Assembly (NCBI GenBank): GCA_024137785.1
Contig: JAHRHZ010000016.1
Coordinates: 31,640,784 to 31,704,783, forward strand
Length of the DNA stretch: 64,000 nt
Direction: 5' to 3'
Source of the DNA: Ginglymostoma cirratum
Taxonomy: Eukaryota
The position numbers and the translations under genes were made by a program. The notes beneath the pieces are model-generated. The model had not been told where the DNA came from. It saw only the letters and a program-made list of their open reading frames with translations, and did no database searches. Positions 8,125 to 52,386 of the stretch are shown here, one piece after another (position 1 is the first letter of the stretch; the number at the start of each line of letters is the position of its first letter).

Positions 8125-8130
8125 TGTTTA

Positions 8131-10755: not shown

Positions 10756-10860
10756 CAGAAGTCACGCGACACCAGGTTATAGTCCAACAGATTTAATTGA
10801 AATCTCAAGCTTTTGGAGCGCCATTCCTTCATCAGGTGAAGTCACTGACACTTCCACGTA
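10756..10860 (-). mobile_element. Short Penelope-like fragment with a degenerate hammerhead (rc CTGATGA-AGGA..TCC-AAAA-GCTT)
   Basis: Same family as the arms of 43999-44802; flanked by a 10-bp direct repeat aaagtaattt (10746-10755 and 10861-10870). Confidence 0.75.
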
Positions 10861-11003
10861 AAAGTAATTTTGGATTACTAGAAATATTTCAACAAGCTTT
10901 TATGTTTTAGTGCATTCAGAGCTTCACACATGCAACTACTTTTTGTTACAAATAGTGTTTGTGCTACTGGATCCATTCAAGTCTGTATTGAACTTTGTTA
11001 TAG

Positions 11004-11195
11004 ATCAGCTCCTACTTCAGCAGTATAATCGCAGAGAAGTTACGATGTAACACATTTCCGGATACAGGCAAAAGGAAGCCTCAGGTTAATCAGAAGGATA
11101 GTTTCTGGCTTGTCACAGCTCGTTCCCAACCTTCAATACATAACTGGTTTACTGATCTGTCTGGAACCAAACCATTAACACAACTTGCAAAAAAG
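11004..11195 (+). CDS. MED12: MED12 exon 3 equivalent, 192 nt, [64 protein letters not shown]
   Basis: ttatag acceptor and AAG|gtaagt donor, phase 0-0. Start of the Med12 domain. Not in the ORF track because there is no start codon. Confidence 0.95.
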
Positions 11196-11769
11196 GTAAG
11201 TTACTTTTGATCCATGATTTTTTTTTTTCTGCTGTTAAGTTTATAAGGATACAATTGTCTCATAATACTTTTACATTTTTCAGCTGCCGACTACCCTAGT
11301 ATTTAAGTAATTGTAGTCCGATCATGATATACAGTTTTGAGTTGTGAAGTAGGTCAGTGGTCGGAATGAAGCCAATCTGGCTGCTAATAAAATTCAATTT
11401 GGTAGATGTGACTCTACTTTTCTTTGATTTTTTTTTCTTCTAATTCGTTTTAGTCTACTTTTCAGCACATACATTTAAAGTAGTATCATTGTAGACTTCT
11501 GTGTCAATTAGAGCACTTATTTCAGTAGCTTTTTCCACACCTTTAATGCTATTGATGGTAGACACACTAAATTAGCTTATTCTTTTTAATTGCAGAGAAG
11601 TGATATGAAAAAGGGCTGTTGAATCTTATCCCACCATCAGCTGGTATCTTATCAGTTGGTTAGAAATGTCTTTGTTTACGATGGATGGGGTTTTTAAAAA
11701 AAATATGCCTTTAGAGTTGCTGTTGGCAAGCATTTAGGGTCACAGAAATCAGGAAGAATAAAGAATTGG

Positions 11770-13070
11770 TTTATACAGCAAATATAGAATGATGCAGCAA
11801 GTTCAACCTGTGTTCAACCCACCCTCCCTGTCCCCCAGCTACTTTGGTAAGCTGTTCAATCAAAACCAATCCACTGCTCCAAATAGTTGTAATTTTTTTA
11901 ACCTACAATTATTACCCAATTCTCTTTTGGATGTTACTTTAAATCTGCTTTCTCCATTCTTTCATGCAGTGCCTTTCAACGTATAACAAGTTTCTTTGAG
12001 GGGAAAAATTATATTTCCTCATGTCTCTTCTGACTTGTTTATTGATAATTTTAAATCTGTATATCCTGGTTACTGACCCTTTTACCATTGGAAACAGTTC
12101 CTCCTTATGAACTGTTATCAAATTACCTATGATTTTGAACACGTCCATCGAATCTCCTCTACCTTTTTGCTGCTCTTAAAGCACAAAACCCAGCCTCTTT
12201 ATTCTCCATGTAAGTGAGGTTCATTGGACTGTGACTATTTTTAAATTTTGGCAAACTTTTAAGTACCTTTTCTTTATTTTTATCCTGTTCACTATAACTA
12301 CTATTTCAACCTTTTACCAATGCCTTCACTTCATCTTTCTAGTGAATTCAACAGCAAGGTATTCATTCAGTAACCCAGCATTCCATCTCCACAAGAAAGT
12401 CCCATTTGTCATCCTTAATTGGCCATAACTACCTTTTGACTACTCTTTACTATTTATACACTTATGAAAGATTGGCTTACCTTTTTTAATTGCGACTAAT
12501 CTATTCTCATTTTCTCTTTTTTTATTATTCCCTTTTCTTAAATCTTCACTCGGTTTTCTAAATACTGAATATAACTTCTATTGGGTTAGCTGCACAATTG
12601 TCATGTCTCCTTTCTCTGTTTCATTTTAGCCACTATATCTTTAGTCATTCAGTGAGTTCCAGCTTTGGATGTCCTTTCTTTTGTCCCTACTTCATTTGAG
12701 TCATTTGTTCTTTGAAAGCTCTTTGTTTTACAATTATTGTTTAATCTATTAATCTATTAACTTTTGACATCCCATACATGTTCTCAATTTACTACCTTTC
12801 CTCCATTTATGTATTTTTGATTGTACTTTGTTTTTTTCTGTAACTCAGCTAAACCTGATCATACCATGTTCTTCAAATGCCTTGCCTCACTTTATTCCCC
12901 AGAACTACATCAAAACCGCTTCCCTCCTCACTGGGCTGGAAATGCACTGATCAAGAACATTGTCTTAGGCACATTTCAGGGATTCCTCCTCCACTTTATT
13001 CTTTACACTGTTGCTATCCCTGTTTATGTTAGGATAACTGAAGTTTCCCCATTATTGCTACGTAGTTATT
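11770..13070 (-). mobile_element. Old, highly decayed CR1 LINE
   Basis: ORF 11939..12148 (DVFKII..EELFPM..SVTR..RFKI) is CR1 ORF2 C-terminus-like; the downstream pyrimidine-rich sequence resembles 54150-54900. Confidence 0.55.
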
Positions 13071-13204
13071 GTATTTTTCTGTAAATGCTCCTCTGTCGTC
13101 TTCCCATGATTGGCTTCTACTTTATAGCAGCTCAGTGGCTCCACTGTTATGTGACTGTAAATATAATTATGTTCATGTGTAAGTAACATCTGATAGTGAA
13201 TAAA

Positions 13205-13340
13205 TAATTTTCTGATGAAGGGTCTAGGCCCGAAATGTCAAGCTTTCCTGCTCCTATGATGCTGCTTGGCCTGCTGCGTTCATCCAGCTCCACACCTTGT
13301 TGTCTCGGATTCTCCAGCATCTGCAGTACCTATTATCCCT
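13205..13340 (+). mobile_element. Penelope-like terminal repeat fragment with a minimal hammerhead core (13212-13239)
   Basis: CTGATGA-A-GGGTCTAGGCCC-GAAA-TG-TC followed by the family body cctgctcctatgatgctgcttggcctgctg... Confidence 0.8.
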
Positions 13341-13377
13341 AATATTTATCAGAAGCTTTGAGGAAAATGAAAGGCCA

Positions 13378-27609: not shown

Positions 27610-29430
27610 AGGACATGAATATCGATGGCTGGGCTTTAGTTCCTTGCCAATCCATAATTACGCTTGAGAAAGTGGTTTGGGGCATATTTACGAACCACTG
27701 CAGTCCATGTGGTGTAGGTACATCCACAGAAAGGAATTCCAGGATATTGACTCACTGACATTGAAGGAATGCTGATATAACTTCAAGTCTGAATGGTGTC
27801 TAACTTAGAGAGGCCTTGAACATGCTGCTGGTCCCATGCAACTTCTGCTCTTGTGATACAAGGTGGTAGAGGTTGTGGATTTGTAAGATACTGTCAGTGG
27901 AGTGTAAGAATGAATTACTGAGTGTATTTTGTACATGATACACACACTGCTGTTACGGTGCGACTGTAGTGGAGACTATGAATGTTGAAAGTGGTGGATG
28001 GTGTGCCAACGAACTAGGCTGGATTTTGTCTGTCATTTTGAGTGTTAATGGTGCTATACTCATTCAGACAAGTGGAACCTATTCCATCGCACTCCTGATG
28101 TTGTGCTTTGTAAATGGTGTGCAAGCTTGAGCGTTGGGAGTTATGTCTGTTACCACTGAATTTCTACCCTTCAACTTGCTGTTGTGGCCACAATATTTAT
28201 ATGGCTAAACCTGTCAAGTGTTTGGTCACTGATTAACCTCTGGAACATGAATGACTATGGATTCAGCAATTATAATTACGTAAGCTATCTTCAGCCATAT
28301 TGTGTGGAGTGAATCAACTTATCTTAAAAACTGACATATGATACTGAGATGGGGCAACACTACGGACTTGTGGCTGAGGATAGTTACAAGTGCTTCAACA
28401 TTGCCTTTTACATTGATGTGCTGGTTCTCCCATCATTGAGGATGCAGTATTTTTGTGTCCGATATTCACAGCTGGATGAGACAGCTCCACAGAATATTGA
28501 TCTGATCTGTTGGTTTTAGGATTGGTTACCTCTGTCTGTCTTTTGCGTACTGCTTCTATTTTTCAACAGATAAATGTCACATGTTGTGGTTCACTGGGCT
28601 GGCACCTCTTTTTCAGGTATATCCTTTCTTGCTTCTGGTAAGTTCTCCGACACTCTTTATTCCGACAGGATTTAACCCCTGATTTGATAGTTGTGGTAGA
28701 GTGGAGAATATTCCAGACCATAAAGTTATAGATTGTAGTCGAGTACATTTCTGCTGCTGTTGATCTGTGGTGCTTCATTGGTGACTAGTTTTGAATTGTT
28801 ATATCCATTGCTAAATCTGCCTTATTTAGCACAGTGGTAGTACTGCAGAACGCGGTGAAGGATACGGATAATGTGAATATGGGACTTTGTCTCCACAAGG
28901 ACTGTGTGGTGGTCACTCCTACCAGTATGATTGTGGGAAAACACATCCGGGACAGGTAGATAAGTGAGGAAGAGGCCAAACTGGTTTTTCTCTCGTTGCT
29001 TCTTACAACATTTACCCCAGGTCCAGTCTAGCAGCTATGTCTTTTAGGATTTGGCCATCTCGGTCAATAGTGGTGCTACTGAGCTACCCTTGGAGATGGA
29101 CATTGAAGATGCTGAATGTGACTATATTCTGTGCCTTTGACATGCTTAGTTCTTTGCTTGTTCAATTATTGAACTACATGAAGGAGTACTGATTCATCAG
29201 ATGTGGGGGCAGCTGTGCATGTAATGAAGAGGAAGTATATTTTCCTGTGTTTGAAATGATGCTATGAAACTCCGTGAGATCAAGACCTGATGTTGAGCAC
29301 TCCCAGGGGAACTGTCTCCTGGCTGTATGCTACTGTGCTACCACCTCTGCTTGTTTTGTCTTGCTGGTGGGAAGGACATAACCTGGTGATGTTGGTGTCT
29401 GGGAGGTTGCCTATAAGATATGAATCAATA
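27610..29430 (-). mobile_element. Decayed family-B LINE with internal deletions, 3' end to endonuclease
   Basis: Homologous to 4010-4700 and 31550-33960; PDTNIT..QQDKTSRGGSTVAYS is endonuclease-like. Confidence 0.75.
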
Positions 29431-30044
29431 AAGACTGACTCAATCTGTGTTTGGATCTTTATTCTAGGACAGAAGTTGAAAAGCAAGTATCAGCCAGGTT
29501 GCATTCGTAAAACCATAGGGTGTAGGAACAGAAGTAGGCCATTCAATCCATTGAGTCTGTTCTGCCAGTCAATGAGCCTTAATTGTACTTAGCGACCCAG
29601 CCTTTACACCCCTCTGCAGTAGAAAATTCCATAGATTCACTGTCCTTTAAGAGAAGAAATTACTCCTCATCCTTGTCTTAAATGCACAAGACCCTACTTT
29701 GAGATTATACCTCCAGTCTAACACTCTCCCACAAGGAGAATTAACTTTTCTGCATCTACCCTGTCAAGTCCAGTAAGAATTTTGTACATTTCAGCAAGGT
29801 TGCCATTCATTTTTCTAAGCTGCAATGAATACAGACCCTTCCTGCTTAACCACTCCACACAATAAAGTTTCAATGTTTCTGGGATCAACCAGACTGCATC
29901 CAGTGCACGTGTATGTTCTTTCAATCAAAGTACATAACATCTCATTTTGATACATTGTCTTCCAGGATTTTGCCCACTCGTCTAACCTCTGTACAGACTG
30001 TTTGTGTCCCTGCTCAAGAGATTATGTATGTTAGGTAAGGAAAG

Positions 30045-31086: not shown

Positions 31087-31194
31087 GTATATGAGATTCT
31101 CTTGTATAAAAAATGTTGTCTAGGTTTCAGATGTTTTTCCACATTAGATGAGTTTAATAGATGTAGATTGTTATGAAACTTTTTTTTTAAACAG

Positions 31195-33970: not shown

Positions 33971-33974
33971 GAAT

Positions 33975-36630
33975 CATGGGATTGTTATAGTGCAGAAAGC
34001 GGCCATTTGGTCCATTGAATCTGCACCAGCTCTCCATTACGTATTAGTAGCATTTTCCTGTATTTTTCCTGTAACCCTGCACATTGTTTCTATTTAAGTA
34101 ATCATTTAATGCTTTCTTGAATGCCTCAACTGACTCTGTCTCCGCACACTTCCAGGTGGTACTTTCCAGACTTCAGCGCTCATTGTCAGTAAAGTGTTTT
34201 TTTAAAGGACGTTTACTAATTCTTTGTGAGTGGAAAAATTTTTTCTCTTCTTTGCCCAGATTTGTGGATTTGAAAACTTCTACCAGATCTCTCCAAGGTT
34301 AATGGTTCCATCTTCTGCAATCTCTCCTCATAACTGAAGTCTCTTATCCCTGGGATAGTAGAAGCAGGAAAGCTGACGTTTCAGGTCGAGACCCTTCCTC
34401 AGAAGGGCCTGCTGTGTTCATCCAGCTCTACACCTTGTTACCTCTTATCCCTTGTACATTTTTGTGAATCTTCTGCACTCACTCCAATGCATTCATATCC
34501 CTGCTGCAGTATGGTACTCAGAACTGTACGGAATATCCCAGCTGATCTCGAACAACAATCTGAAGTTCACGATCTCCTTACTCTTGTACTTCATGCCATA
34601 TTAATCAAGCCCAGGATACTGTATGCTTTGTTAACTGCACTTTCAATCTGCCACCTCCGTGTTCAATGCACATTTTGCTTCTGCACCCCTTTTAAGCATT
34701 GTACTGCCCCTTTTTTTATTATCTCTCCATGTTCTTTCTACCAAAGTGCATCACTTCACCACTATCTGCATTGTACTTCATCTGTCTTCCATCTCATTCT
34801 AGCAACTTATCAGTGTCCTTTTGGAGTTCTACATCTTTTCTCTCAGTTTACAATGCTTCCAAGTTTTATGTCAACAAATCTATCATCAAGATTTGCAGCC
34901 TTGCAAACTTTGAAGTTGTTTCCTGCCCATCAATACCAACCCTTGGGAACTCCATTAAAAGCTTATCTCCCAGCTTGGAAAATACTGTCTTTTCCATCTT
35001 GCAGCCAATTTTGTATCTGTGTTGCTACAGTCCCTTTTGTTTCATGATCTGTAACTTCTCTCAAAAGTCTATTAAGTGGATTGAATGCATTTTGAAAGTC
35101 CATGCACACCACATCAACAACGTTAAACTCAGCGACTCTATCTGTTCAATAAACTTAACAACTGTAACAATGAATTCTGTCTTGAATAATCATTTCTAGA
35201 TGTTTCTGCACGACTGAAGTTTAGCTGATTGTTCTGCAGTTGCTGGGCTTAACCTTACAAACGTAGGTACCATGTCTCCAAATTCCTAGGAACCTTACTT
35301 CTCCCATAAATTTAGTGAGGACTGTGATTTTGGCCAGTGTCCCTGCAATTTCCACTCTTTCTTCAATATCCTTCGATACATCTCATCTGGTCCCAGTGCC
35401 TTGTCAACTTTAAGTACCAACAGTCTATGCAGCACTGATCAATTTTGAACCCTTCTTATGATGCAGGTTCCTCTTCTGTTATCATGGTCTGGGTCGCATC
35501 TACCCCTTGATAAAGGCAGAAGCAAAATTATAATTTAACAGTTCAGCGTTGCCACTTGCCTCCATGTCTAAATGGACTTTTTTGGTCCTGAGAGGCCCTA
35601 CTCCTTTCATCACTCCCTTACTATTGATGTGCCTGTAGAAGACTTTGAGATTTCATTTTATATCGATCGACTATCTTTTCTCATAATTCCTCTTTGCTTC
35701 TGTAATACGCTACCTCACCTTCCCTTTGAAGCTTCTATACTTTTGGTGTTCAGTTGTGTTTTTTACTTGACACCTGTGATAAACACTCATTTTCTTATCT
35801 AACTTAATTTCTATTTTTTTTCTTCTCATCCAGAGAGGTCTGAATTTCTTCCCTGTTTCCTTTTTTTGAGGGAATACAACTCTAGACTGTAGCCGTACCA
35901 TCTTCTCTTTGAAAGCAACCAGTTGTTCAGCTGCAATATCTATTGTGAACCTTTTTTTTCTAGTATTTTTGGCCCAGCACCTTTCTTAACCCATTGAAGG
36001 GAGCCCTGCCACTGCCGCCCCCCCCCCGCCCGCCCAAACCCATAATCATTCTTACTCTGGATTGCCTATTATTCTTTTTTATCATTGTCCTGAGCCTACT
36101 AGCCCTTGATCATCTTAGTCCACTTCATTTCCAAAAGTTAGGAATATATCCTTCCAAGTTGGATTGGATGAATATTGATGAAGGAAAGATGCCTGAACAC
36201 GGTTTAGGAAGATTTGCCCTCTGCTGCCCTTACCACTACCACTGTCCCAATTTTCATTCAGGTAGTTGAAGTCCACAATTATAACCACTCTATAGTTTCA
36301 GCACCTCTCGGCTATATCATTCCAAACGTGTATCTCTACATCCTCCCCACTAGTAAGTGGTTTATAGACTACACCGAGCAAACAACTGTAGACTTTTTTT
36401 TTCTCCTTGGCTCTGAAAGATTATTATGAACTTGAGCAGCTGGTGCATCACCTTTTTATCAGCACAAAAATGTTCTCCTGAACCAAAAACATCATAGCAC
36501 GGGAAGGAAATGAGGAGCAATCATTTCTGAATACTCTCTTCCCAAGAATATTTAACATCCAATTCTGTCCTTCCAAGCCTCTGTTCTCAGTTATTGCCAC
36601 AATGTCATATTTTAGCATGGCAATCCAAAA
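33975..36630 (-). mobile_element. Long decayed CR1 LINE ORF2 (3' end to endonuclease)
   Basis: ORF 36448..36816 contains YDIVAITE..QNWMLNILGKRVFRND (APE endonuclease); the body is collinear with 52521-55400. Confidence 0.75.
34352..34441. mobile_element. Penelope-like insertion with inverted structure, an 11-bp TSD and an intact minus-strand hammerhead core (34375-34402)
   Basis: TSD ctcttatccct at 34341-34351 and 34442-34452; rc CTGAGGA-A-GGGTCTCGACCT-GAAA-CG-TC. Confidence 0.85.
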
Positions 36631-36654
36631 TGGAAAAATTGATTTGTGAATAGC

Positions 36655-37000
36655 ACCCTCGGAGATTCCAGCACTACCTACTGATTCATGATTCATCTGC
36701 TGATGTGGAACTACAGGTGGTAATAGACAGGACATCTCCTTGCTCATGTTTGACCTGAAACCATGAGATTGTGGTTTGGAGTTGATGCTGAGGACGCTCT
36801 GGGGAAACTCCTTCACATTGTGCTGTCACCTCTGGTGAAGCTGTCCTGCCGATTGGACAGGACATATCCAAAGGTAGTGATGGTGGTGTCTGGGGCACGG
36901 TCATTCGCAAAAAAATCCTACCTGACAGAGACTGGCAGTCTCTTGCTTAATTGGTCTGTGGAATTGTTCCCACCAAGCTGCGACAAGGTTCTGTGTATAG
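36655..37000 (-). mobile_element. Family-B LINE endonuclease fragment
   Basis: Homologous to 29180-29410 (ggacaggacatatcc..gtgatggtggtgtctggg). Confidence 0.65.
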
Positions 37001-37104
37001 TGAATGGTATTGGCACGCTAATCATGGCATTGAATTCCAATTCCAGAAGCCGCTGCTCGAGCGGACCTCGGGTCTTTGCAAAGGTAAAAACAAAATGGAG
37101 GAAA

Positions 37105-37342
37105 TGCTGGTGATAACACAGTGTGGAGCTGGAGGTGCACGGCAGGCCGGGCAGCATCAGAGGAGCAGGAAAGTTGACATTTCGGGTTGGGACCCTTCTT
37201 CATAAGGTTTCTGATTTCTGAAGAAGGGTCCCGATCTGAAATGTCAACTTTCCTGCTCCTCTGATGCTGCCTAGCCTGCTGTGCCCCTCCAGCTCCACAC
37301 TGTTACCTCTGACTCCAGCATCGGCACTTCTTACTATCTCTG
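37105..37342. mobile_element. Penelope-like inverted terminal-repeat pair (about 90-bp arms) with hammerhead cores
   Basis: 37112-37202 is the reverse complement of 37219-37309; TSD atggaggaaa at 37095-37104 and 37343-37352. Confidence 0.88.
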
Positions 37343-37797
37343 ATGGAGGAAACACTGCTCCGAGGGGTGCCTTTTGCCATTTTGGTTCAAGCGCCCAGAT
37401 GTTAATAAGGAGCACTTTCCAGTGTCGACATGGAACTTGTCCTTGTGATTTCTGGCTCCTAGGTCAGCGTTAGGCGATCCACCTTTTTAAGATCCTATTT
37501 TTAGACATTGTGATGAGTTTTGCTACATTGATGGCTTTCTTGACAATTTCATAGGACATTTAAGAACTACCAACATTGCTGTGGATGTGGAGTAACAAGT
37601 AGGCCAGCCTGATCAAAAATGATTTTTTGTCTAGTGCTTCATTTCATATAGTACGGTGTGACTGAACAATGGTGGCTGTAAAGCCAAAAAAAAATCTGCT
37701 TTGGTTATACTTGACATAAATTAACCACGTGAAATATTGTTTCATTTTTGTAGAAAATAAGTTTTTAAGTCTCATGGCTCTGATCCCATTTGTGCAG

Positions 37798-37934
37798 GTT
37801 TTACTATTGGTCGCGTATTGCATACACTGGAAGTGCTTGACAGCCACAGTTTTGAAAAATCAGATTTTAATAACTCGTTGGATTCGTTGTACAACAGGAT
37901 ATTTGGATCCGGGCAGAATAAAGATGGCCATGAG
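37798..37934 (+). CDS. MED12: MED12 exon 10 equivalent, 137 nt, [46 protein letters not shown]
   Basis: gtgcag acceptor, GAG|gtgagt donor, phase 1-0. Confidence 0.95.
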
Positions 37935-39984
37935 GTGAGTTTCATGAATTTTCTAAAAGTATTTGATGCGTTGTTGCATTTAGGAAACATTGCAACCTGG
38001 TTTTTGAATGATTTCCTTTTGAAGATGGTATTTCCTTTTTCGGATCAAAATTCACCATTTCCAGCTGTCATTCCCGTCCCATGTGACTATTTTTCATGCA
38101 TGGAATTCGATACGAATTATTGGACCTTGAGGGGAACAATGATTGTAAGCATGTTTTGACAGGTGTCAGTGGATAGTTGGAACGCTGGCTGATTTGTCTA
38201 CCGTTTACCCTTGCCCAGAAGAGATTCAAAATGGAATTGTTTTAAAAATTAACAGTTAACATGTCAAATGCACCACATATTGAAGTTTTATTGTTCACTT
38301 TTGTCACTGTGGTGGTTTCACTAGTTATCAATGAATAGTTTTGTTTAAAACTGAGAAAAGTGGGATGAGTTAAGTTACTTCTGCAGAGAGTCAGCACACA
38401 GTACCCGATGATTTCTCTCTTTGCTGTAACCATTCTGTGGTTCTGTGATTTATTCACAAAAATTTGAAGACAAAGCAACTGTAGAAGCTTGTTATTCTGT
38501 TAATATCAGATTAGATACTCACCTTCATCATGATTATCTGAGATTGCAATTTAGCCCAGAGTTTGATGAAATGAAAGTCTCACGTACTGCTTCATGTCAT
38601 AACAACTCGCCTGAAATTAATTTTGGTTTTCCATATGAAGTTCAAAATGGGCATGGACCAGCAGGACAAACAATCCTCTTCTGAGTAACGGGTTTATACC
38701 TGCTGTATAAAAAAAATTCAGATGCTGACAGATTTGTCAATTTTCTTCCTCTCTTAGATTTCCAATGTTTGTGATATCTTCAATTTCTTCTACTCCTCTA
38801 ATATATTGGCCTTCATTCAGAAAAAAGATAGAATTGTGTTGGCAATTTCACTATGTGGTACAACAGAACAGTAGAAGTGTGTTTTCACATTCAGGCCTCT
38901 GATTATTGAGGCCGGGAAGAGTAAACCTTACTTTGTATCAACCCAGCCATAGCTAACCTGTGAATATTTTAATGTTGACACTGGTTGCTCAAAATAGAAA
39001 ATATTTAGGCATTCATTTTTTGAAGAGGATGGAAATTCACAGCTGATGTAAATGTTTATGGTTTGATACTTTCAATGCATTTTTGGTTTGCTTTGAAAAA
39101 TCTTTAGGTCCTGTTTTATTGTACCATTCAAATGCAATTCTCTTTGAGATCAGATATCTTTCTGTGATGATGTGGTCACTAAATATTGTTACATTTCCAA
39201 AAAAAATGTGATTTTGTTTTCGTGATCTTGTGATGTCATTTGACAATGCTCACTGCTATGTTGAAAGTTGATGTTGACATAATATTGAACTTGTGGCTCT
39301 TCTTTCACAAATCACTGCTGAGCTCTTCTGTCTTGATTTGTGGATGTTGTGTTTTTTAACGTTTACTAGCTACTTGACTTGTGTTACCTGGTACTTCCAA
39401 TTAAGCTGTGTATCACTCCCTTTACGAACTTGAGAGGAATTCTGATCACAAGATTGAATTGGAATGTTGATTCCTCCTTTTGAAGGTACAAATACTTGCC
39501 AAGATTCTCTGTATGCAGTGTCATGATTAGCAGACTATATTAACCAATGGAGAGTGCTTCTGTATTTTACTTATATACTTGATCCATTATGTACATACAC
39601 ACCTGGAGCCAGTGTATTTGTAGACCACCACACATCCCAGTGCTGCTCAGACAGGTCCTTATATTTCTGCTGTGATCTTGGATTGAACTTTGAAATTTAT
39701 GATGTGGTATGACACAGCGTAATCTTATGCATTTACTCATGTAGTCATCGAACAAAGTTTTCTAGCATTTATTTTAAATTTTAAAACTATTTGCACATTT
39801 CAGACAATGTGGCCTTGCACATGTGCTGTGGCTTCTAATTCCTTAAATTCATATTTGTGATTTTACTACTTTTTTTGGTTTTCCAAGTTGGTGAAGAGAA
39901 ATCAGATCATACTTCGAGGCATTTTGTGCTTCCCGGCAGTTAGTTGTCCAGTTGATGCTAAATTTATTCTTTTCCCCTGTCCAG

Positions 39985-40116
39985 ATATTACCAGATGATG
40001 ATGCAGTTATGACTTTGCTGTGTGAATGGGCAGTGAGCTACAAGCGTTCAGGCAGGCACCGAGCCATGGTGGTGGCAAAGCTGCTGGAGAAGAGGCAAGC
40101 TGAAATTGAAGCCGAG
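39985..40116 (+). CDS. MED12: MED12 exon 11 equivalent, 132 nt, [44 protein letters not shown]
   Basis: gtccag acceptor, GAG|gtaaga donor. Contains the diagnostic LCEWAV motif. Confidence 0.97.
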
Positions 40117-41238
40117 GTAAGATACTTTGTTACTGAGTCAAGTAGATCAAATTTCAGTCACGGGTTGTTTAAGGGTTAGGATTGTTGAATCTCAAAATTT
40201 AGGTTGGCTGTGGAATAGAGCAAGAAAAAATTCGTAGTAGAAATAGTTAACTAGATCCCAGTAGGATAAGAATGGATTTGGGCCACATTTGCAACACTGT
40301 AACTGAACGATGAACTGCTTTAAAAGAGCAGATCATATTAACACAGCTGAGGTATAATTCAAGGACAGGATAGGCCAATTTAATGCCAACCTCTCCGGGT
40401 GATGAAAGAGATGAGTTAAAGATGAACAAGAAATTATGTGCTTAATACCATTGTCAGGAGGATAATACAACTAAAAACTAGACTGGATATATAAGTTTTA
40501 GAGGAGAAGTAATAAAGCAAATAAGAAAAATCAAATATGAAAATAGATGGGCAGCAATCATGAGAGGGAGTCCTAAAGTCTCATATTGTCATAGAAATAG
40601 TGGAAGTGGTAAACAGAGGACGGGGACCAATGAAGAATCAATAAAATAGATTTATGCATGTCAACTGTAAATGAATACGTTGCATCCCTCTTTACCAAGA
40701 AGGACGATGATGTGCAGGTCACGGTGGAAGAGGAGGTCATTCGAACATTGAGAGTTTAAAATTGATGAGGTTTTTGATAGACTATCTGGGCTTAAATCTG
40801 GTAAGGCATCACCAAATGTGATGCATTTGAGGGAAGTGAATGTGGACATTGAAGAGGCGCTGGCCAAAATTTTAGTCTCCCCTAGTCCCAGGGTGATGCC
40901 AGAGATCTGGAAAATTGCAAATATAACACGCTTATTCAGAGAAGGACGTAATTATACAGGTTATTCAATTTAACCTCCATGATGGAGAATTTTCTAGAAA
41001 CCCTAATTTGAGATAAAATTAATGCTTTGGTGAATGCAGGCCGATTATGGAAAGCTAACTTGGAATGCTAACCTAGCTGGAACATTTTGAGGTAACAGAA
41101 GGTTGATTACGGTAATGTTGCTGATGTGGTAGAACATCCAAAAGGACTTCTGAAAGGCGTTTAATACAGTCCCACAAAATTGACTTGTGAGCATTGCTGT
41201 AACTGAATAAAAAAAGACAGGAGCAACGTGGATATGAA

Positions 41239-41340
41239 TTCATTTTCTGATGAAGGGTCTAGGCCCGAAACGTCAAGTTTTCCTGCTCCTATGATGCTGC
41301 TTGGCTTGCTGTGTTCATCCAGCCCCACGCCTTGTTATCT
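41239..41340 (+). mobile_element. Penelope-like insertion with a 10-bp TSD, nested in CR1
   Basis: TSD tggatatgaa at 41229-41238 and 41341-41350; the host CR1 reads through when the insert is removed. Confidence 0.9.
41247..41274 (+). ncRNA. Minimal type I hammerhead ribozyme motif (PLE-type) with intact core
   Basis: CTGATGA-A-GGGTC-TA-GGCCC-GAAA-CG-TC; palindromic ACGT in place of helix III; helix I only about 3 bp (TTT/AAG). Activity not shown. Confidence 0.7.
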
Positions 41341-42822
41341 TGGATATGAAATTGGTTGAGTGAGGAATTCATGAATGTTTTTGTTTGAGAGAAATAGTTG
41401 AACTGGAGATGATTAGAAGCTGTTGTTTGTGCCCTTTATCCCCTTGAGCCTTATTAATGACTTAGACCTTGGTGTAATTTCAAAATTTGCACATGATGCA
41501 GTGCTTGAATAATTGTGAAGAAAAGGATATTGTAGAACTTCAAAAAGGACAAATAGGTTGTTGGGATGGCCAGAAAAGTGGCAGATGAAACTTAATGCTG
41601 ATTATTATAGTGATATATCTTGACAGAGATCGCATAGAGAGAATATAAAGTAAATTGCCAAAGGAGTGTAAGAGCAGTGAAACTAGTTGTATGTGTGAAT
41701 GTATTTTACATATTTGCACGTTTATGTATAGATATTTGATATAATTGTAAATTTAGATATTATGTATGTATTATTTATACTTTTAGTTTATACAAGTATG
41801 TATGTCATTGAAGGTGGCAGGGCTGGCTGAGAGAATTGATAATAAAGAATAGGCTGTACAGGGGCTTTGTTAATAATGGGCGTACTGTACAAAAGCAAGG
41901 AAGTTATTCTAAACTTGTAGAGAACACTACCTCGGCCTCAACTGGAGCATTACGCTCATTTCCAGGGGTTAAACTTTGCGAAGTATGAGAAGGCATTATA
42001 GGGTGCAGAGAAGATTCATGTAAATGATGGCTGGGATGAGGAAGTTCAGTTATGTGGATAATTTGTAGACATTTTGATTATTTTCATTGGAGGTGGGAGT
42101 GTTGATAGGAGATTTGTTAGCTGTTTACAAGATCATAAATGGTCTGTACAGAGTAGATTAGAACGATCTTCCCAGTGGTGGATGGATTGGGTTAAGATGC
42201 CCCACGTTTAAGATAATTGGCAAAAGGCAGCAATGGAGACATGAGGAAAAAAAAACTTTTGCATAGCAATTGGTTAGGATCTGGAATATGTTGCTTCAAT
42301 ATATGGTAGCAGGATCAATTGAGGCCTTAAGAGGGAATTGCATTGTTATCTGGGAACAAAGAATGTGCAGGGATATGGGTAGAAGACTAGAAATGGCTGT
42401 AGGTAACTTGCTCCTTTGGAGAATCCGGATAGATATGATGGGCTTAATTGTCGCTCCCTGTATTGTAACTGTTCTGTAATTAGTTTCAAAATGCTTTGAA
42501 GCCTCCCAGGATTTATTGGTTCTTTATATATTTAGAATTTTCTGTTTCTTTCTTAACCTGAGATTAAGTTCCAAACTTCAGCTGAATAATCAATCAACAT
42601 CACTTTCAAGTTCTTTTGAAGGGAAGGTGATGTTCCACATGCTCTCAAAAATCTTGAGAGAAAACAAAATGTGTGCTGACTGAAAAACAAAAATTGACGT
42701 GTCGTCAAGTGGTGGCATCATGAAAATGTACTGTGAATTAACATCAGTTTGATTTTTACCTTTCTTTACTTGCTTTACAAAACTTAGTATAATTTTATGT
42801 CCTGTTGTATTCTTTATTTTAG

Positions 42823-42949
42823 AGATGTGGTGAATCTGAAGTGGTAGATGAGAAGGGGTCTGTCTCGTCTGGATCTCTCACCAGTGCCAGCATTCCTGTT
42901 TTCCAAGATGTATTACTTCAATTCCTGGATACCCAAGCTCCAATGCTGA
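42823..42949 (+). CDS. MED12: MED12 exon 12 equivalent, 127 nt, [42 protein letters not shown]
   Basis: ttttag acceptor, A|gtaagt donor, phase 0-1. Confidence 0.95.
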
Positions 42950-43998
42950 GTAAGTGTGTTGCAGGAAATTTTACAGTGATGCAGTGCTGTGTCAGACCAA
43001 CAAAATTGCTCTTGGAAATCTGGAATCTATAATTTTCATCACAGTGAGATCATATGCTGTAATTTGGTTTGCATTTTGGTAGGATTTATTTCCCCTAGCT
43101 TACTTGTATAGGTGGTGTCGAAATGCTGACAACTGTTTTCTACAATGGTGGCTGTCAGGAGCCAGAATGAATAAACTGAAGTTCATGCTCAGCAGTAAAA
43201 TTTTGATCTCACATGCAGCTGTGTGTGCTTGGACATTTGTCTGAAGGTTCGACCTAGGCTAGTGGCAAGGTTAAACCATTAGATGCTGCGCATGGTTATC
43301 CTTGGACCCAATTGCTTTACCTTTCTATGCAAATTTTCTGGAGTACAGGTGCAACTGGAAGCAACAATGTCTGAATGAAATCATAAGATCTTCACTCAAT
43401 GGATCAGGCAGACTGGCATTACTGCAGGAATCTATTACTGGATATCTTCTTGTAAAACAAGATTATGCATCTTTAACATTTAATTTGTGCAATTGATTTG
43501 AATATATCTCGAATTCATACTAAAGTTTTTAATATACTTTTTATAAGTTTTGTTAAAGCAAGCAACTATGTCATATTGGATGATGCAACAGTATCTAAAA
43601 ATATTATCTTAAATTACATGCTGTAACATTGAGCGTAAATCTCAAACTCAAACTTTTGTCTCTATGTAAATTCTGTAAGAATAACGGAATTACAGAAGAG
43701 GCATGTTAACGAGATTGAGGAATACTTTACTGCTGATCTAGTGCAGTGTGAGAAATCGTGAACAAATAAGGATTAGTAAATGGTCTATTCGGTCATCTGA
43801 TGACTGTTCAACCTTTTGTACAGATGTCAACAGAACAAATCATGTCTGACGCGCAAGGTATTATGTTAATTCATGTGATCAGTGAAGCTTAGATTGGCTA
43901 ATTCTTCTTTTTAAACGAAAAGTTGCTGATAATAATGCCTCTGCCATGATTTGTTTCCTCAGGGACAGTTTAAGATTTAAATGTCATATCGTGATCTG

Positions 43999-44802
43999 TG
44001 ATGTGGAGGTGCTGGTGTTGTACTGGTGTGAACAAGGTCAAAAATCACATGACACCAGGTTATAGTCCCACAGGTTTATTTGAGAACACAAGCTTTCGGA
44101 GCCTTACTCCTTCAGGTGTTACTGAGAGGGGTATCAAACAACGAATTTGTAAGTATAAGATCAAAGGGTCACACCATTGTTAATGATGTACTAAACAAAC
44201 CCAAGATGTTGTTAAATCTTCAGTTAGAAGCTTCTAATTGATTAATATACATATGTATATCCCTGAATTCCTTTTGCGTCCCTGTCCTGTGAGAACTAAA
44301 GGTTTTATCAGTGTAAGGAAGAGGTAACATTTTAGGTCAGACAATGCATGTTAGATGTGCACGCAATTTATAGACAGTCACTCAATGTGGCGTTTTATAA
44401 GCTCCTACTCTAGAAATAAAACCAGTCTGACGCCAAACCAAAATACAAACCGATTCTAAACAAGGCCTCACACCTAACATGCATTGTCTGACCAAAAATG
44501 TCATCTCTTCTTTACACTGATGAAACCTTTAGTTCTCACAGGACTGGGACTTGAAAGAAATTCAGGGATTTACATGTACATATTAATCAGTTAAAACCTT
44601 CTAACTGATTGAAGGTTTAACAGTATCGTGGGGTTGTGTAGTACATCCCCATCAATGGTGTGACCCTTTGATCTTTTACTCATAAATTCGGTGTCTGATA
44701 CTACCTCTCTCACTAACACCCGAAGAAGGAGTAAGATTCCAAAAGCTTGTGTTTTCAAATAAACCTGTTGGACTGTAACCTGGTGTCGTGTGATTTCTGA
44801 CC
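43999..44802. mobile_element. Penelope-like element remnant with ~325-bp inverted arms
   Basis: 44036-44360 is the reverse complement of about 44468-44802; degenerate hammerheads at about 44090-44116 (-) and 44720-44748 (+); TSD atatcgtgatctg / atgtcgtgatctg at 43986-43998 and 44803-44815. Confidence 0.85.
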
Positions 44803-44959
44803 ATGTCGTGATCTGACCTCTGTGACTTATGCAACTGTTTATCCCATAAACATTTGGTGATTTTTGTAGTTCAGTATTTGAAGTAAATTGAGAAAAAAAA
44901 AATGCTCAGCAGGGGAATTAACAAAGGTCATATTTCAAGCCATACCTATTATTTGTATT

Positions 44960-47100
44960 AACTTGTAAATTACTGACATTGTGTCAATATCAAATAGCAT
45001 TGCTGGCGACATCTTTCGTAACTGATGATATTGTGCGACTACCAAAGGGATAGCCTAAATTCAGGAAACGATGATGTAAATCTAGTTTGGGTACAGATGA
45101 AAATGGATAAAGGTAATAAATCATTTGTGAGACTAGTGTAAAGGCCTTCTAACTAACCCACATGGTAAGGTGGAGTACGGTGAATTGGTCATAGAATCCC
45201 TACAGTGTGGAAACAGGCCCTTCGGCCCTACAAGTCCACACCGAACCTCAGAGCATCCCACCCAGACCCATCCCCCTATAACCTCCCTAATCTACACCTT
45301 CCTAAACGCTATGGGCAAATTAGCATGGCCAATCCACCTAACCTGCACATCTTTGGACTGTGGGAGGAAACCGAAGCACCCGGAGGAAACCCACGCAGAC
45401 AGGGGAGAATGTCTATGTGGAGTTTGCACAGTTGCCCAAGGCTGGAATCGAACCCGGGTCCCTGGCGCTGTGAAGCAGCAGTGCTAACCACTGTGCCACC
45501 GTGCGTCATCTAGGTTAATCATGCATTACAGGTCAGTTATCTCAGTCACGAGCTGTCAAAGCCAAGAATGTATCCATTTCTTCCAATCTTCCTACAAATT
45601 TAATGACACATCTCTCTGATAGTTTCCTGGATCATAATTCATCTCAGTGGTTGTGTCATGGAAGATCAACAGAAAGTTACTGCTCTCTACAGCAACAAGA
45701 CCAAAACCATGTTCACAGTTTCGCAAACCTTGAGGGGGACGGAAGTTACAAGGCAATGCAATTTTTAAAGAAGCAAGGTGTATTATTCAAGCAGGATAGA
45801 GCAATCCTTTATTTCTAGGAAAGAGAATGAATTGATTTATAAGCTAGGTTTGTTATTCCAGTGGGATGCGTACCTAAAGTGTTCTCTGGGCAGCGCAATT
45901 CATTCAATATAAATTTAAAAGGGCCATACCAACATAAACATTGTAAATTCAGTGGAATTACAGGTCACAAAAGGTATATATGAACTGCAGACTTACAGGC
46001 CGAGCCATTGTCCGATGCTCAGAGTTATTTGGAAATACAGGAACAGGAGTACATGCTGATGTTGGTGGTTATAAATGCTCTTGAAGAAATTTTAAAACAG
46101 AGGAAACAAAATAGGAGCTTGACAGAAAGGTATGGAATAATAATGTGGAATTTTAATCCGTATACCGGTGGGAACAATCAGATGGTAGAAGGTAGTCAAG
46201 TTGACTTCATAGAATATTTTCGAGAGAGTTTCTTAGAACAATGCATTCTGAATCCAACCAGAGATCGAGCTGTACTGGAACAAGAACTGTGTAATGAGAT
46301 GTGATTCAGTAATAATCTCACAGTAGAGGCACCTCTAAGTAGTAATGATCATTATATGATTAAATTTTATGTTCCCTTTGAAGGAGAGGTGAGTCTAAGA
46401 CTGATGTAATTGTCCTTAGTTAAGTTTAATATGAGGGCATGAAAACAGGGCTAGCTAAAGTGAACTGGCAAATATAAATTTCAGGATAGATCAATAGATG
46501 CAGTGATGGATATTTAAAGGGATATTTCAGAATACACAAAAAATATACTTTTCAGCAGAGACAAATTCTAAGGTGGGGAAACCTACTATCTGTGGTTAAC
46601 TTTCAAAAAAAAAAGATATTTTCGGATCAAAGAAAAAGCGTATGATCCTGTTTGAAGATTGGATGGCATATAAAGAACAGAAACAATGACTAAAAGATCA
46701 ATAAGGAGGGAAAAATTCAGTATGAGAAGAAGCTGGCTTGAAATATAAGATCAGGAAGAATTTCTGTACATAATTTAAAAATTAAAGCATTAACAGGGTG
46801 CTGATCCTAGCAAAAGAAAGTCGGGAGAATTAATAATGGGAAATAATGATATGGCAGATGACATTTCCATCGGTCTTCATTTTGATACAAGTAACACCTC
46901 ACTAAATCAGGAAATGGAAGAGAGGAATTACAATCACCAGTAAAGCTGTGGGTTGATAAATGCCTGAGTTCGGATGGAATTTGTCCTCTCGTCTTAACAG
47001 AAGTCAGTAGTGAGATAGTTGATGCATTTTGTCTAATTGACCAAAATTCCACGGATTAGACAATAGTGAATGTAACTCCTCCATTCGATAAAGGGAGAAA
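44960..47100 (+). mobile_element. Decayed CR1 endonuclease/linker fragment, interrupted by a SINE and unassigned sequence
   Basis: FIEYFRESFLEQCILNPTRDRAVLEQELCNE parallels FMECLRDGFLEQLVVEPTREQAVLDLVLCNE in ORF 54747..55400. Confidence 0.7.
45188..45503 (-). mobile_element. HE1-like V-SINE (micro-inversion variant), young-looking
   Basis: rc A box tggcacagtgg, B box ggttcgattcc, CpGs retained; closely similar to 15824-16121. Confidence 0.93.
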
Positions 47101-47499
47101 AGGCAGAACAGGCTAAAAGGCCAAATGGCCTACTCCTGCTCCTTACTTGTATGTTCGTTGTTATCAGTACGTAACTGGTCATAGTGGATTTTCCCCTGCT
47201 ATATATGTTTGGTAAAAATCCTATAACCTGTTGGTATTCACCATGTCATTGCAGCTAGACTCCACTTGCAATGAAGAACGTGTAGTCAGGTTTCCCTGTT
47301 GTTGGCACTTTACTCCATTTCTCTTCCAATCATTCTGGACACAAACTTGCACTTATGTTCTGTAGGACAGTGAAAACTTTGGAACAAGAACCTCTGTGTA
47401 ATCGTCATCTAACATGTTTAATATAAGTACAATGTTCAATTCCATTCGCAGTTCCTCAGAAAAAATCAGTTTTGCTCACATCGAGCACGACCGTGTAAA

Positions 47500-47990
47500 C
47501 ATTCAGACTTGAGCTGATAAGTGGCAAGCAATATTTACCCACATGAGTGCTATCTCCAATACAAGATGATCTAATCTAGTTGCCTGACTTAAATATTTAA
47601 TAGCATCATCGTTGCTGAATCCTGTAACATCAATGTCTTAAGTTGTCATGAACCAGAAATCTAACTGGACCAGCCACACAGATATCTATAGTAGTTTCTA
47701 AGCAGGTCAGAGACTAGGAATTCCATAATGACCAACTCACCACTGAACTCCCCTCGGCCTGTCTGCCACCAATAAGGCACAACTTAAGAGTGTGATTTAA
47801 AAACTCTCCACATGCCTGAATACGTTCAGCTTCAAAAACACTCCAGGAACTCAACATCTAGGAAAATGTAGCCCACTCATTTGTTACTCTGTTCACAACT
47901 TTAAATATTTATCCTCTCCATCACCAGCACTTTGTGGCTGCAGTGTGTAACGTCTGCCAGATGCATGGTGGCAATTTGCCAAACTGCTCA
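47500..47990 (+). mobile_element. Decayed family-B LINE 3' fragment
   Basis: Collinear with 6400-6890. Confidence 0.65.
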
Positions 47991-48740
47991 AAGTAAGGAG
48001 GCATGGGATTCAGGGAAATTTGGCTGTCTGGATACAAAACTGGTTGTCCAATAGAAGACAAAGAGGGTAGTAGTAGATGGAAAGTATTCAGCCTGGAACT
48101 TGGTGACCAGTGGGGTTCCGCAGCAATCTGTTCTGGGACCTCTGCTCTTTGTGATCATTTAAGTGGAAGGGTGGGTTAGTAAGTTTGCCGATGACACGAA
48201 GGTTGGTGGAGTTGTGGACAGTGTGGAGGGCTGTTGTAGGTTGCAACTGGTCATTGACAGAATGCAGAGCTGGGCAGTGAAGTGACAGATGGAATTCAGC
48301 CCAGAAAAGTATGAAGTGATTCATTTTGGAAGGTCGAATTTGAATGCAGAATACAGGGTTAATGGCAGGATTCTCAGCAGTGTGGAGAAACAGAGAGATC
48401 TTGGGGTCCACGTCCATGGATCCCTCAAATTGCTACCCAAGTTGATAGGGTTGTAAAGAAGGCGTATGGTGTGGTGGCTTTCATTGGCAGCGGAATTGAG
48501 TTTAAGAGCCGCGAGGTTATGCTGCAACTCTAGAAAACCCTGGTGAGACCACACTTGAAATATTGTGTTCAGTTCTGGTCGCCTCATTATAGGAAAGATG
48601 TGGAAGCTTTAGAGAGGGTGTAGAGGAGATTTACCAGGATGCTGCCTGGACTGGGGGGAAGGTTTTATGAGGAAAGGTTGAGGGAGCTAGGGCTTTTTTC
48701 ATTGAAACGAAGAAGGATGAGAGGTGACTTGATCGAGGTC
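47990..48740 (+). mobile_element. HER1/CR1 RT fragment
   Basis: [45 protein letters not shown]. Confidence 0.9.
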
Positions 48741-49150
48741 AAAATCCCCTACCAATGTAACCTTTGTTATTTTTACAACCATCTGCGATATCCCTATTTA
48801 TTTGCTTCTTAATTTCCCGCTGACTATTGGGGGGCCTAAAGTACAATCCCTTCAAAGTAATCATGCCCTTCTTATTTCTCAGTTCCACCCATATAGCTTC
48901 ACTGGGTGATTTCCCCAAGAATATCTTCTCTAAGTATTGCAGTGATGTTTCCCTAATTAAAAATGCCAACCCCCATCCACCTCTTCTTTTGCCTCCTTTT
49001 CTATTCTTCCTATGCCATCTGTATCCTCGAACATTGAGCTGTCAGTCCCTCAGACATGTTTCTATATTGGCTATGATATCCTAGTCCCATGTTCCCATCC
49101 ATGCCCTGAGTTCATCTGCCTTACCTGTCAGACCTCTTGCATTGAAATAA
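48741..49150 (-). mobile_element. CR1 endonuclease fragment fused in opposite orientation
   Basis: EAIWVELRNKKGMITLKGLYFRPPNS. Confidence 0.85.
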
Positions 49151-50580
49151 ATTCTCTTATTTCCATAGGTTTGATGTTTGTGACATTTTGTGCAAGACAC
49201 ATCTTAGTCATCTCTGGATCAACATTTTTAAACTAAGTCCTAGGCTTATTTAATGAAGGACAGTTCTTGTTGAATGTTGGAAATATAACCGAGGAGAGAA
49301 GCAATTTGGTTGGAGTTGTGTTCCTACAATAACCTACTCAGCAACCAGGTCCTTTTATATTCCACCTTTTGAAATACTTATCCGATTCCTTATAAATAGT
49401 CTTGTTTTTACCTGCACAGATCCTTGATATGAAGCATCCTATGGCCTAAGAGCCCTTTGGTCATATGCTCGCATTTTCATTTTCCCTTTAGTTCATTGTT
49501 ATGATCCTAGCTGGTGTTCTTATTGGACAAGTCCAATCCTAGACAGAAACCTAGCTTGGTAGATCGTATTTTGATTTATTTTGGTTTTAGTAGTTGGTCT
49601 CTTGCTGAAAAATAAGCATGCATTGCTGCAGCTTATTGCTTTAAGAATAAAACTGAAGTTTATTACAAAAAGAAATGAAGATGAAATGGAATAAGCCAAA
49701 CTATCTATTTATAAATACACATTTGAGGATTCAAAGATTTTTAAACACACGTAATAGAATCCCATGAATCGCAAATTGAAAAGTAGAAAACAAACCAGCT
49801 TTGGTATGGTAACTGAAAACCCATCCCAGGATAGTTTCCGAAACTCTACTTGTGCAGTACTCTCACAAGAATCCCTGTATGCAACACCTCTGTAGACGTA
49901 GGTTGCTTGTGGTTTCAACTTTTAGACTACAACTGCAAATGATCGTTTCTTCCTGACTCAACTTCATACCTGAGCTTTATTGTACTCAGCTTTAAGTAAC
50001 CTTTCAGGGTTTTATGCCAACACTTCTAGTCTAGGACTAATACTAACTTTTTAATCCAAGGCAGTCTAGTTTATTACAACCTTCCCTTCACTTGTCACAT
50101 TTATTCCAAGGGTTTCATAGGACTACCCAAAACTTAAAGTAAAATTGAACCAGAAGTTCTCCTCTTTAAGCAATGGGTGTTTCCCTTAAGTTTGAAAAAA
50201 GCAAGTTCCATAAGTTTCTATCAAACGTTGAACCCCCATTGTTTGGCAACTGAGCAAGGTAAATAATCTATGAGAAACAAAAAAAGTCCATTAGCAGTGT
50301 GCACAAACCCATTCAATCTGAAGCTATACTCTAAAACTTTTCTTATAAGAAGTAATCACTATTGTTACCGAAATATTTACAAGTAATTACTTACTTCAGA
50401 CACGCAGACAACCCATAGGGTACTGAAAAACCAGCAACCCAATCTGGCAGACAGTCCACTCTGCAATGTTAGTACTCGGAAGCTGTATGTAATCCATAGA
50501 ATGTCATTTGTACATCAATCATTAGAATACAGATTAACATTTCCTTTGTTGTCCTTAACTATCCCTTAATTGTCTTCTAG

Positions 50581-50810
50581 CTGATCCTGGTAGTGAAAGT
50601 GAAAAGGCTGAATTTGCCAACTTGGTACTCCTGTTCTGTGAGCTGATCCGCCATGATGTTTTCTCTCACAATGTCTACATGTGCACGTTGATATCCAGAG
50701 GAGATTTGTCCTCGGAGCAAAATGTGCCCAGACCACGATCGCCTGTTGACGATGCAGCAGAAGAACAGGACCGGAAGGAACATGAAGGAAACAGCAGTGT
50801 AAAGCTGGAG
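50581..50810 (+). CDS. MED12: MED12 exon 13 equivalent, 230 nt, [43 protein letters not shown]...VKLE
   Basis: ttctag acceptor, GAG|gtatgg donor, phase 1-0; conserved [13 protein letters not shown] motif. Confidence 0.96.
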
Positions 50811-51928
50811 GTATGGAGAATATCAGGGACAGTGCTGGGGTAGATGTTTTGAAGTATAATTTCCTCTATCCTCTAACTTTAGCAGTCCTTTCAGGCACAG
50901 TCTTAGGCGCTGGACATGGTGTCATGTAAGTGATGTTGTCCGCTTAGCGAGAAAATCTGGTGCTGTTGTATGTAGCTCCATGCTGGATACAACTATCCTT
51001 GGGGAGGCAAATAAAAGACTGACTGACTGGTCTCTGACCTGATTTGTTGTTTCACTGTCAGATTGAAGTATTAAATTTACAAGTGCCATTGGAAGTGGAG
51101 AATGGAAGGGACTTTCTTGACTGATTTTTTTTTTTTTTTCCAGAGTGCAAAGTGTTCTGTCTTTGATATTTTAAAAACTTGGTAGCATATCTTGTATGTC
51201 TGGGCTCTGATACCTTGGTTTATTTCTTATTTGATCAACCTATCCTTGTTCTAGAGCTCTGGCAATATTAATTTCTTTCTTGTCTGCTTTAGACCTATGT
51301 TTGGTGCTTGATTTTTCTTGTGTGATAAGCCACAGGCTGAAGAAAGTAACATTGGATGCTGATCTCTGAAACACATAATAAAGAACTTCCGAAAGTTTCC
51401 ATGGCTAACAAATATTTTAAAATATCAAAATTCAGGCCAGAAACAAAATATGTCGAATCGAGTTCAAGGTTAAATATTTGCCTTAAAAAGTTTGATCTAG
51501 GAAAGCACCTGACTTCATGTACAAGTTATCAAAAGTCCCAGCTGAGTACCCACTGTGCCTTTAGTTTATCAACTTCAAGTGTTCTTGTCATTTAATGTTG
51601 TTTGTTTAAGGGAGAACAGCATACATTTAATAATTTCAGTGGGTGTTTTATAAGGAGAGATTACATAAAATTGGGTGTACTCTGGAATGTAGTAGGTTAT
51701 GGGTGATTTTATCAATGTTTTCAAACTATCAAATGGAACAGATAGGGTAAATAGAGGAAAATTATTTTTACTGGTTGAGTCCAGGACTTGGGAATGTAGT
51801 TTAAAAATCAGAGAGATATTCTAGCAGTGATTTCAGGAAAACAATTTTCTCCAGACAAAAGCAAATAGAGATTAGGAGTTTTCTTCTCAAAATGGCAATT
51901 TGCTGCTAGATAACTTGTTAATAATGAA

Positions 51929-52386
51929 GTTGTTTCAGAGATAGTAGGAACTTCACAAGCTTCAAAATCTCCCCTCCCCCTACCGCGTCCCAAAACCAGC
52001 CCAGCTCGTCCCCGCCTCTCTAACCTGCCCTTTCTTCCACCTATCCCCTCCTCCCACCTCAAGCCCCATCCCCATCTACCTACCAACCTCATCCCGCCTC
52101 CTTGACCTGTCCGTCCTCCCTGGACTGACCTATCTCCTCCCTAACTCTCCACCAACACTCATCTTTACTGGCTCCATCCCAGCCTCTTTGACCAGTCTGT
52201 CTCCTCTCCACCTACCTTCTCCTGTATCCATCTTCTATCCGCCTACCCCTCTCTCCCTATTTATTTCAGAACCTCCTTCCCATCCCCCATTTCTGAAGCA
52301 GGGTCTAGGCCCGAAACGTCAGCCTTCCTGCTCCTCTGATGCTGCTTGGCCTGCTGTGTTCATCCAGCTCTACACCTTGTTATCTC
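51929..52386 (+). mobile_element. Penelope-like 3' region (pyrimidine-rich UTR plus hammerhead with A9->C, 52293-52320), nested in a CR1 3' fragment (about 51600-52510)
   Basis: CTGAAGC-A-GGGTCTAGGCCC-GAAA-CG-TC; short inverted tail piece gagatagtaggaac at the 5' side; imperfect TSD ttgttaataatgaa / ttattaataataaa. Confidence 0.8.

Follow-up and report, generated by a model that had tools for sequence, protein, structure and literature searches.

Minimal type I hammerhead ribozymes in the pseudo-long terminal repeats (pLTRs) of metazoan Penelope-like elements (PLEs) have already been published (Cervera and De la Pena 2014, PMC4209133), with monomers uncleaved and cleavage of dimers and trimers low; this and the other papers named below are cited for the sections on which we draw. 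In a PLE studied since, cleavage occurs solely with the element's own protein, insertion in vitro is independent of cleavage, and RNA-seq showed no read ends at the site of the cut (PMC11167929). TATA and initiator (Inr) sequences in pLTRs are known (PMC3846280, PMC2377424), as are a Cys-rich CX2-5CxxC linker before the endonuclease of Neptune and Nematis elements (PMC8557442) and the hammerheads conserved in amniote introns of RECK and CTCL/C10orf118 (PMC6155905). The subject of this analysis is a 64,000-nt stretch of the Ginglymostoma cirratum genome (contig JAHRHZ010000016.1, positions 31,640,784 to 31,704,783; the window), in which a MED12-family gene carries short hammerhead-like repeats. 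These are very probably the dispersed pLTR ends of three families of endonuclease-bearing (EN+) PLEs with a minimal type I hammerhead, likely inert in MED12 introns.

The original prediction had placed about 15 repeats of three related families in the window, and all 15 places hold a copy. The pattern CTGANGA-N11-18-GAAANNTH matches six times (13212, 13380, 16988, 37218 and 41247 on the plus strand; 34402-34375 on the minus strand), against 0.36 +/- 0.61 matches in 100 shuffles, none of which reached six. Family A has members at 13212, 17821, 34402, 37203, 37218, 41247 and 52293, family B at 13380, 13901, 16988, 19687 and 26787, and family C at 10835, 44115 and 44720. The covariance-model check proposed for these motifs, run as an Rfam scan with E up to 10, gave zero hammerhead family matches at them; the Rfam hammerhead models miss the minimal form.

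Copies from elsewhere in the genome establish the origin of the repeats and bear out their assignment to minimal PLE hammerheads. Collected by tail similarity alone, 295 A, 230 B and 120 C copies were taken from 1.67 Mb of fetched DNA, a non-random sample mostly centred on exact tail matches, and those touching stretches read as N were removed (34 of the 295, 5 of the 230 and none of the 120). Long copies extend upstream of the motif into a pyrimidine-rich untranslated region (UTR) and then an open reading frame (ORF) whose C-terminus is a GIY-YIG domain, detected at the Pfam cut-off in family A copies L024 and L026 and in family C copy L206. Among long copies, 41 of 68 in family A, 11 of 14 in B and 3 of 35 in C have a same-strand tblastn match to the L026 ORF that ends within 900 nt. 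When translated, L026 and L206 show a Cys-rich CX2-5CxxC linker ahead of the endonuclease, and a YIDD motif can be read in L026; on the other side of the ledger, Pfam searches with partial ORF pieces gave no core reverse transcriptase (RT) family match. Downstream, each family has two clusters of 3' ends about 35 nt apart, corresponding to the PLE tail. Among the short A copies, 48 of 125 form arms of head-to-head pairs, and of the 77 that are not inverted, 25 lie between flanking duplications of 7-14 bp. A few copies (L186:4488 on the plus strand, L148, L173) continue past the long tail into common sequence that is probably the 5' body of the element.

The families are abundant. In the 4.36 Gb covered by word and pattern counts, the 28-nt core of family A recurs without mismatch 22,605 times, and exact tail words number 90,622 (A), 35,418 (B) and 3,674 (C), with none for reversed controls. 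A count of 789, which would have made the family A core rare, was rejected, the counted word having carried a minority subfamily ending. Nothing in this is specific to MED12, and any large gene of the genome would probably hold such stubs.

Motif anatomy was examined in copies reaching C3 (161 A, 130 B, 84 C), with pairs counted by structure-anchored parsing; a cross-family MAFFT alignment displaced family C by one column. N7 is the sole core position to vary freely, by subfamily (A87/T70 of 161 in family A). The bulged A between positions 9 and 10.1 is kept in 157 of 161 A, 123 of 130 B and 75 of 84 C copies, and the G10.1-C11.1 pair is present. In the place of helix III stands a palindrome, most commonly ACGU in A and B and AGCU in C; the TG variant counted as a palindrome of its own in the original prediction is CpG decay, and there is no third palindrome. 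With helix III absent and stem I only 2-4 bp in the parsed motif copies, the full helices needed for monomer cleavage are not found. Between B and C the majority pairs at stem I positions 1-3 change from U-A, U-A, G-C to C-G, A-U, C-G, and those at stem II positions 3-4 from G-C, U-A to A-U, G-C, with the palindrome also changing. By raw majority counts, which reflect few independent events, stems I, II and III thus covary between families; the original prediction had named core conservation and stem II covariation across genomic copies as the test of its assignment, and such covariation is indeed present between families.

Individual copies decay. Core losses in all three families are concentrated at CpG sites, and fully intact motifs remain in 58 of 161 A, 23 of 130 B and 9 of 84 C copies, a pattern that would place selection on the master elements, with inserted copies left to degrade. 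Weighing against this, non-CpG core mismatch is 2.0% compared with 3.1% in the adjoining linker, in copies chosen by alignment through the motif. Also frequent in family C is a CUGACAA variant (e.g. L117, L118, L157; G8>A in 16 of 84), attributable to CpG decay of CUGACGA, which would leave the core inactive.

The same decay is visible in the window, the motif states of copies 10835, 19688 and 37202 having been read by hand:

10755..10842, minus strand: family C short copy; motif 10835-10807 with G12>A and a stem II mismatch; 5' start at an Inr-like A, preceded by G
11004..11210, plus strand: open frame with the first MED12 exon located in the window, from its translation and presumed identity
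13207..13344, plus strand: family A short copy ending in a long tail; core and stem II of motif 13212-13239 intact, palindrome AUGU
13378..13484, plus strand: family B short copy flanked by a 10-bp duplication; motif 13380-13409 with a stem II A-C mismatch, AUGU and a GUA triplet
13897..13999, plus strand: old family B copy; U4>C, A13>C, U16.1>C
16983..17084, plus strand: family B copy; core boxes intact, stem II disrupted, AUGU
17754..17830, minus strand: family A copy cut off inside stem II, with no CUGANGA box and a 15-bp target-site duplication
18753..18842, plus strand: MED12 exon, matched by Pfam Med12 (PF09497)
19683..19875, plus strand: family B copy; C3>U, G8>A, G12>A; microsatellite expansion in tail
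22402..22461, plus strand: family B tail remnant, absent from the original prediction
26787..26905, plus strand: old family B-type copy; G12>A, stem II disrupted
34359..34448, both strands: family A inverted insertion with an 11-bp flanking duplication; minus-strand motif 34402-34375 (core, stem II and ACGU intact; antisense to MED12) head-to-head with a plus-strand tail arm, 34406-34448
37112..37344, both strands: family A fold-back pair; minus arm with C3>A at 37203, plus arm with motif 37218-37245, two G-U pairs among four stem II positions and palindrome AUGU
41242..41345, plus strand: family A short copy; motif 41247-41274, the sole fully intact sense copy in the window
44001..44807, both strands: family C inverted pair with a common upstream UTR; motif 44115-44090 (minus) with a 3-nt deletion within CUGANGA, motif 44720-44748 (plus) with U4>C and G12>A
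51949..52386, plus strand: family A 5'-truncated PLE end; motif 52293-52320 with A9>C

The last of these contains, in order, the final 17 ORF codons (51949-51999), a pyrimidine-rich 3' UTR, a TATA-like box, an Inr-like site, the motif and a short tail, at 90% identity to L026 over 438 nt. Five cores had been called intact. The description holds for 41247(+) and 34402(-), which keep the core, a 4-bp stem II and ACGU, and fails for 13212 and 37218, whose AUGU palindromes reflect CpG decay, and for 13380 with its three defects. The 37203(-) and 37218(+) arms pair over 88 nt at 91% with a predicted -173 kcal/mol, burying the 37218 motif in the fold-back, and the inverted arm at 34406-34444 had been overlooked. 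As side observations, a (GTTTCT)n/(GTTTTT)n microsatellite at 19757-19852 has expanded inside the tail of the 19683..19875 copy, and a 196-nt direct repeat, 91% identical (17830-18025 and 19379-19574), flanks the 18753 exon, with the 17821 insertion adjoining one of its copies only. Three further intronic segments, 52949-55406 (minus strand), 48088-49041 and 5470-6594, hold endonuclease/RT fragments like those of long interspersed nuclear elements (LINEs), which we take to be of CR1/L2 type from their motifs.

The short copies share a 5' start. In family A, 125 of 261 begin between -7 and +9 from C3, with the modal boundary at -3 and a spread up to +9, and 68 are long; the same interval holds 131 of 225 family B starts, with 14 copies long, and -10 to +3 holds 51 of 120 in family C. 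Long copies place this start about 30 nt below a TATA-like box, at an Inr-like site (CCATTT in 60 of 68 long A); the box lies at -35 in 48 of 68 A, at -33 in 10 of 14 B and at -39/-40 in 13 of 35 C copies, with none in 16 of the 35. Where the base before the Inr-like A differs from the native C, as tallied by hand among the first 100 listed matches of each family, it is G in 55 (A), 51 (B) and 71 (C), compared with 20 of 100 for a control C five bases further along (Fisher p 5e-7, 7e-6 and 4e-13, respectively). An extra G is a known mark of RT copying a cap, as seen in LINE-1 work, and L172 has a clean lone G between target duplication and element. A separate feature of short A copies is an ATTTT start with one T more than long copies (13207-13211, 41242-41246, L039, L172, L187 and others; 17 of 47 short A, 1 of 61 long A), which may have arisen by slippage at the end of the RNA or of the complementary DNA (cDNA). 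A search of mostly open-access literature for a PLE 5'-end hot spot, strong-stop products or a cap-derived G found nothing on the subject.

The short copies are likely run-off cDNAs from the 5' ends of uncleaved RNA. They may more specifically record a strong-stop intermediate, a proposal to which we commit about half our confidence. RNA polymerase II would start at the Inr-like A, 4-7 nt ahead of the CUGA box (-4 from C3 in A and B, -7/-8 in C), and RT would prime internally, either about 65 nt or about 100 nt beyond the motif, read through the uncleaved hammerhead, and run off the capped 5' end, leaving the extra G. Longer copies would need a jump of RT to the RNA 3' end, and failed jumps would have been inserted by the tens of thousands, each run-off product with a 7-14 bp target duplication and often as a head-to-head pair. 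Selection on the active master elements would maintain the motif itself, which in them would need to dimerise in order to fold, probably assisted by the element's protein. If true, this scheme would explain pLTR regeneration and put hammerhead cleavage outside or after template use.

Two sets of observations count against the scheme. The first concerns the G: of 20 local cases with an extra G, 13 have TG at this point, and a short duplication or snap-back would account for several. Whether by cap copying, duplication or snap-back, the cDNA ended at the Inr-like A. The second concerns the cut site, within 2 nt past which 16 of 261 A copies start, compared with 3.6 expected. Twelve of the 16 are inverted arms at an (A)AGCT(T) palindrome; without inverted copies the figures are 4 and 1.5 (p 0.06), and starts of this kind number 4 of 225 in B and 1 of 120 in C. 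As proof of cleavage in vivo, the peak was rejected on these grounds.

The most serious rival accepts the PLE origin and has the 5' start set by an AT-rich cut preference of the endonuclease, by microhomology or by RT stalling. We regard this as possible, at clearly lower probability than the strong-stop intermediate. With an ORF-pLTR junction as target, cutting was preferentially at ATT (PMC11167929), and the family A boundary reads ATTT; the dispersion about the -3 mode and the many G junctions reading TG also suit it. Against it, B (AGTT) and C (ACTTCAC) differ at this point and still share the hot spot below the TATA-like box and the same G excess, and only 7 of the 261 A copies have their end in the stretch from -44 to -8. 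A second rival, in which the short copies would be a non-autonomous mini-element able to propagate itself, resembling a retrozyme or a short interspersed nuclear element (SINE), could draw on the mostly short copies of family B and on the target duplications of short A copies. It is improbable, given that short copies have no TATA-like box, that long copies of the same subfamilies have the ORF, that the window contains no tandem arrays, and that the 3' ends match the PLE tail.

The host gene lies on the plus strand and spans about 130 kb. Besides the Pfam-confirmed 18753 exon, which follows the open frame at 11004-11210 that we take to be an exon, Med12-LCEWAV matches four of five exon peptides, and a Med12-PQL match reaches window coordinate ~149,900, beyond the window, all on the plus strand; a PDB search returned human MED12 as its sole match (E 6e-21). 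A second MED12-family gene, at G000:C288:3761352-4239148 on the minus strand, spans about 480 kb and is probably MED12L. From these spans and the usual sizes of the two genes, the host is probably MED12, the longer paralogue being presumably MED12L. Exons 1-2 of MED12 were not located, and copy 10835 is presumably intronic because the next exon, at ~11005, has no start.

The intronic copies are likely without effect on MED12. Matches between 11,200 and 149,900 number 23 sense and 16 antisense PLE pieces, with core and stem II surviving in four sense copies and one antisense copy; in these small numbers there is no sign that sense copies have been purged. The active double-hammerhead fold of a 41247 homodimer is predicted at -3.5 kcal/mol against a minimum of -33.8, that of 13212 with 13380 at +10.2 against a best fold of -14.3, with stem II broken and stems I of 2 bp, and the predicted probability of stem I pairing in context is ~0 for all window copies. 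In a related organism (organism D), the orthologous intron lacks the 41247 copy: a 2,214-nt contig joins across 41214-41366 with 34 other letters at the joint and both flanks ~93% alike, as does another run from this sample; the sole intact sense copy is therefore not conserved. Several points pull the other way: stem II of 41247 is predicted to be well formed in context (P ~0.95), nearest-neighbour energies omit core tertiary contacts and help from proteins, and the absence in organism D concerns one sample and one copy. The original prediction had sense copies cut the MED12 pre-mRNA as cis- or trans-dimers, tuning output; the intact sense motif at 41247 with its stable stem II, the 168 nt separating 13212 from 13380, and 22,605 identical cores as possible trans partners speak for it, yet with unfavourable predicted dimer folds, stems I predicted unpaired, undepleted sense copies, absence of 41247 in a relative, and activity that is low (PMC4209133) or protein-dependent (PMC11167929) we consider it very unlikely. 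For MED12 itself the repeats are probably of no consequence; collectively, the copies form a natural data set on PLE transposition, a poorly understood process.

The RECK and CTCL/C10orf118 hammerheads are single and conserved, with full helices and tertiary contacts. They share with the present motifs an intronic type I form on the sense strand, whereas the motifs here are minimal, multi-copy and decaying, and 41247 is missing in a relative. A domesticated intronic hammerhead was rejected, the one intact sense copy lacking an orthologue in the one sample of organism D and the motif lacking helix III and having a stem I of 2-4 bp. Non-LTR retrozymes, defined by tandem repeats with at least two complete motifs (bioRxiv 10.64898/2026.07.22.740005), were rejected as well, window copies being dispersed, single or inverted, with no such tandem repeats.

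Poseidon PAc of Anolis carolinensis (PMC11167929) resembles the elements described here in its two alternative 3' ends past the hammerhead, its uncleaved RNA template and the lack of a clear cut-site signal, and differs in belonging to another clade and, in the sections drawn on, in having no described 5'-end hot spot or extra G. Separately, in AG-type copies the CUGAUGA box contains an ATG from which a frame runs on through the tail, resembling PAc, in which the ORF starts at the motif. The likeness to Neptune-type EN+ PLEs (PMC8557442, PMC3846280), judged by shared features, extends to the C-terminal GIY-YIG domain with its Cys-rich linker, truncation at the 5' end, inversions into head-to-head pairs, an optional tail of 30-40 bp, short duplications of the target and pLTR TATA and Inr-like sites; most insertions here, in contrast, are motif and tail alone.

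A search of mostly open-access literature for shark PLE hammerheads found nothing, and no shark term occurs in the searched supplement files of PMC4209133; the three families may be listed in supplements of that paper or of bioRxiv 10.64898/2026.07.22.740005, in which one chondrichthyan genome was sampled. The closest match is the minimal hammerhead of PMC4209133 itself, with the same CUGANGA box, unpaired nucleotide before stem II, G10.1-C11.1 pair, palindromic 15.2-16.2 positions, short stem I, and mostly solitary copies with opposite-strand pairs. The original prediction's statement that such motifs cleave as dimers is too strong, given the low dimer and trimer cleavage reported there and the protein required in PMC11167929. 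Two differences stand out: 22,605 exact copies of one core occur here, compared with ~4,000-9,000 found by descriptor in coelacanth and Xenopus, and the fixed 5' start ahead of the motif is undescribed in the sections of PMC4209133 on which we draw. The repeats are further members of the published minimal-hammerhead PLE class, and ordinary for this genome.

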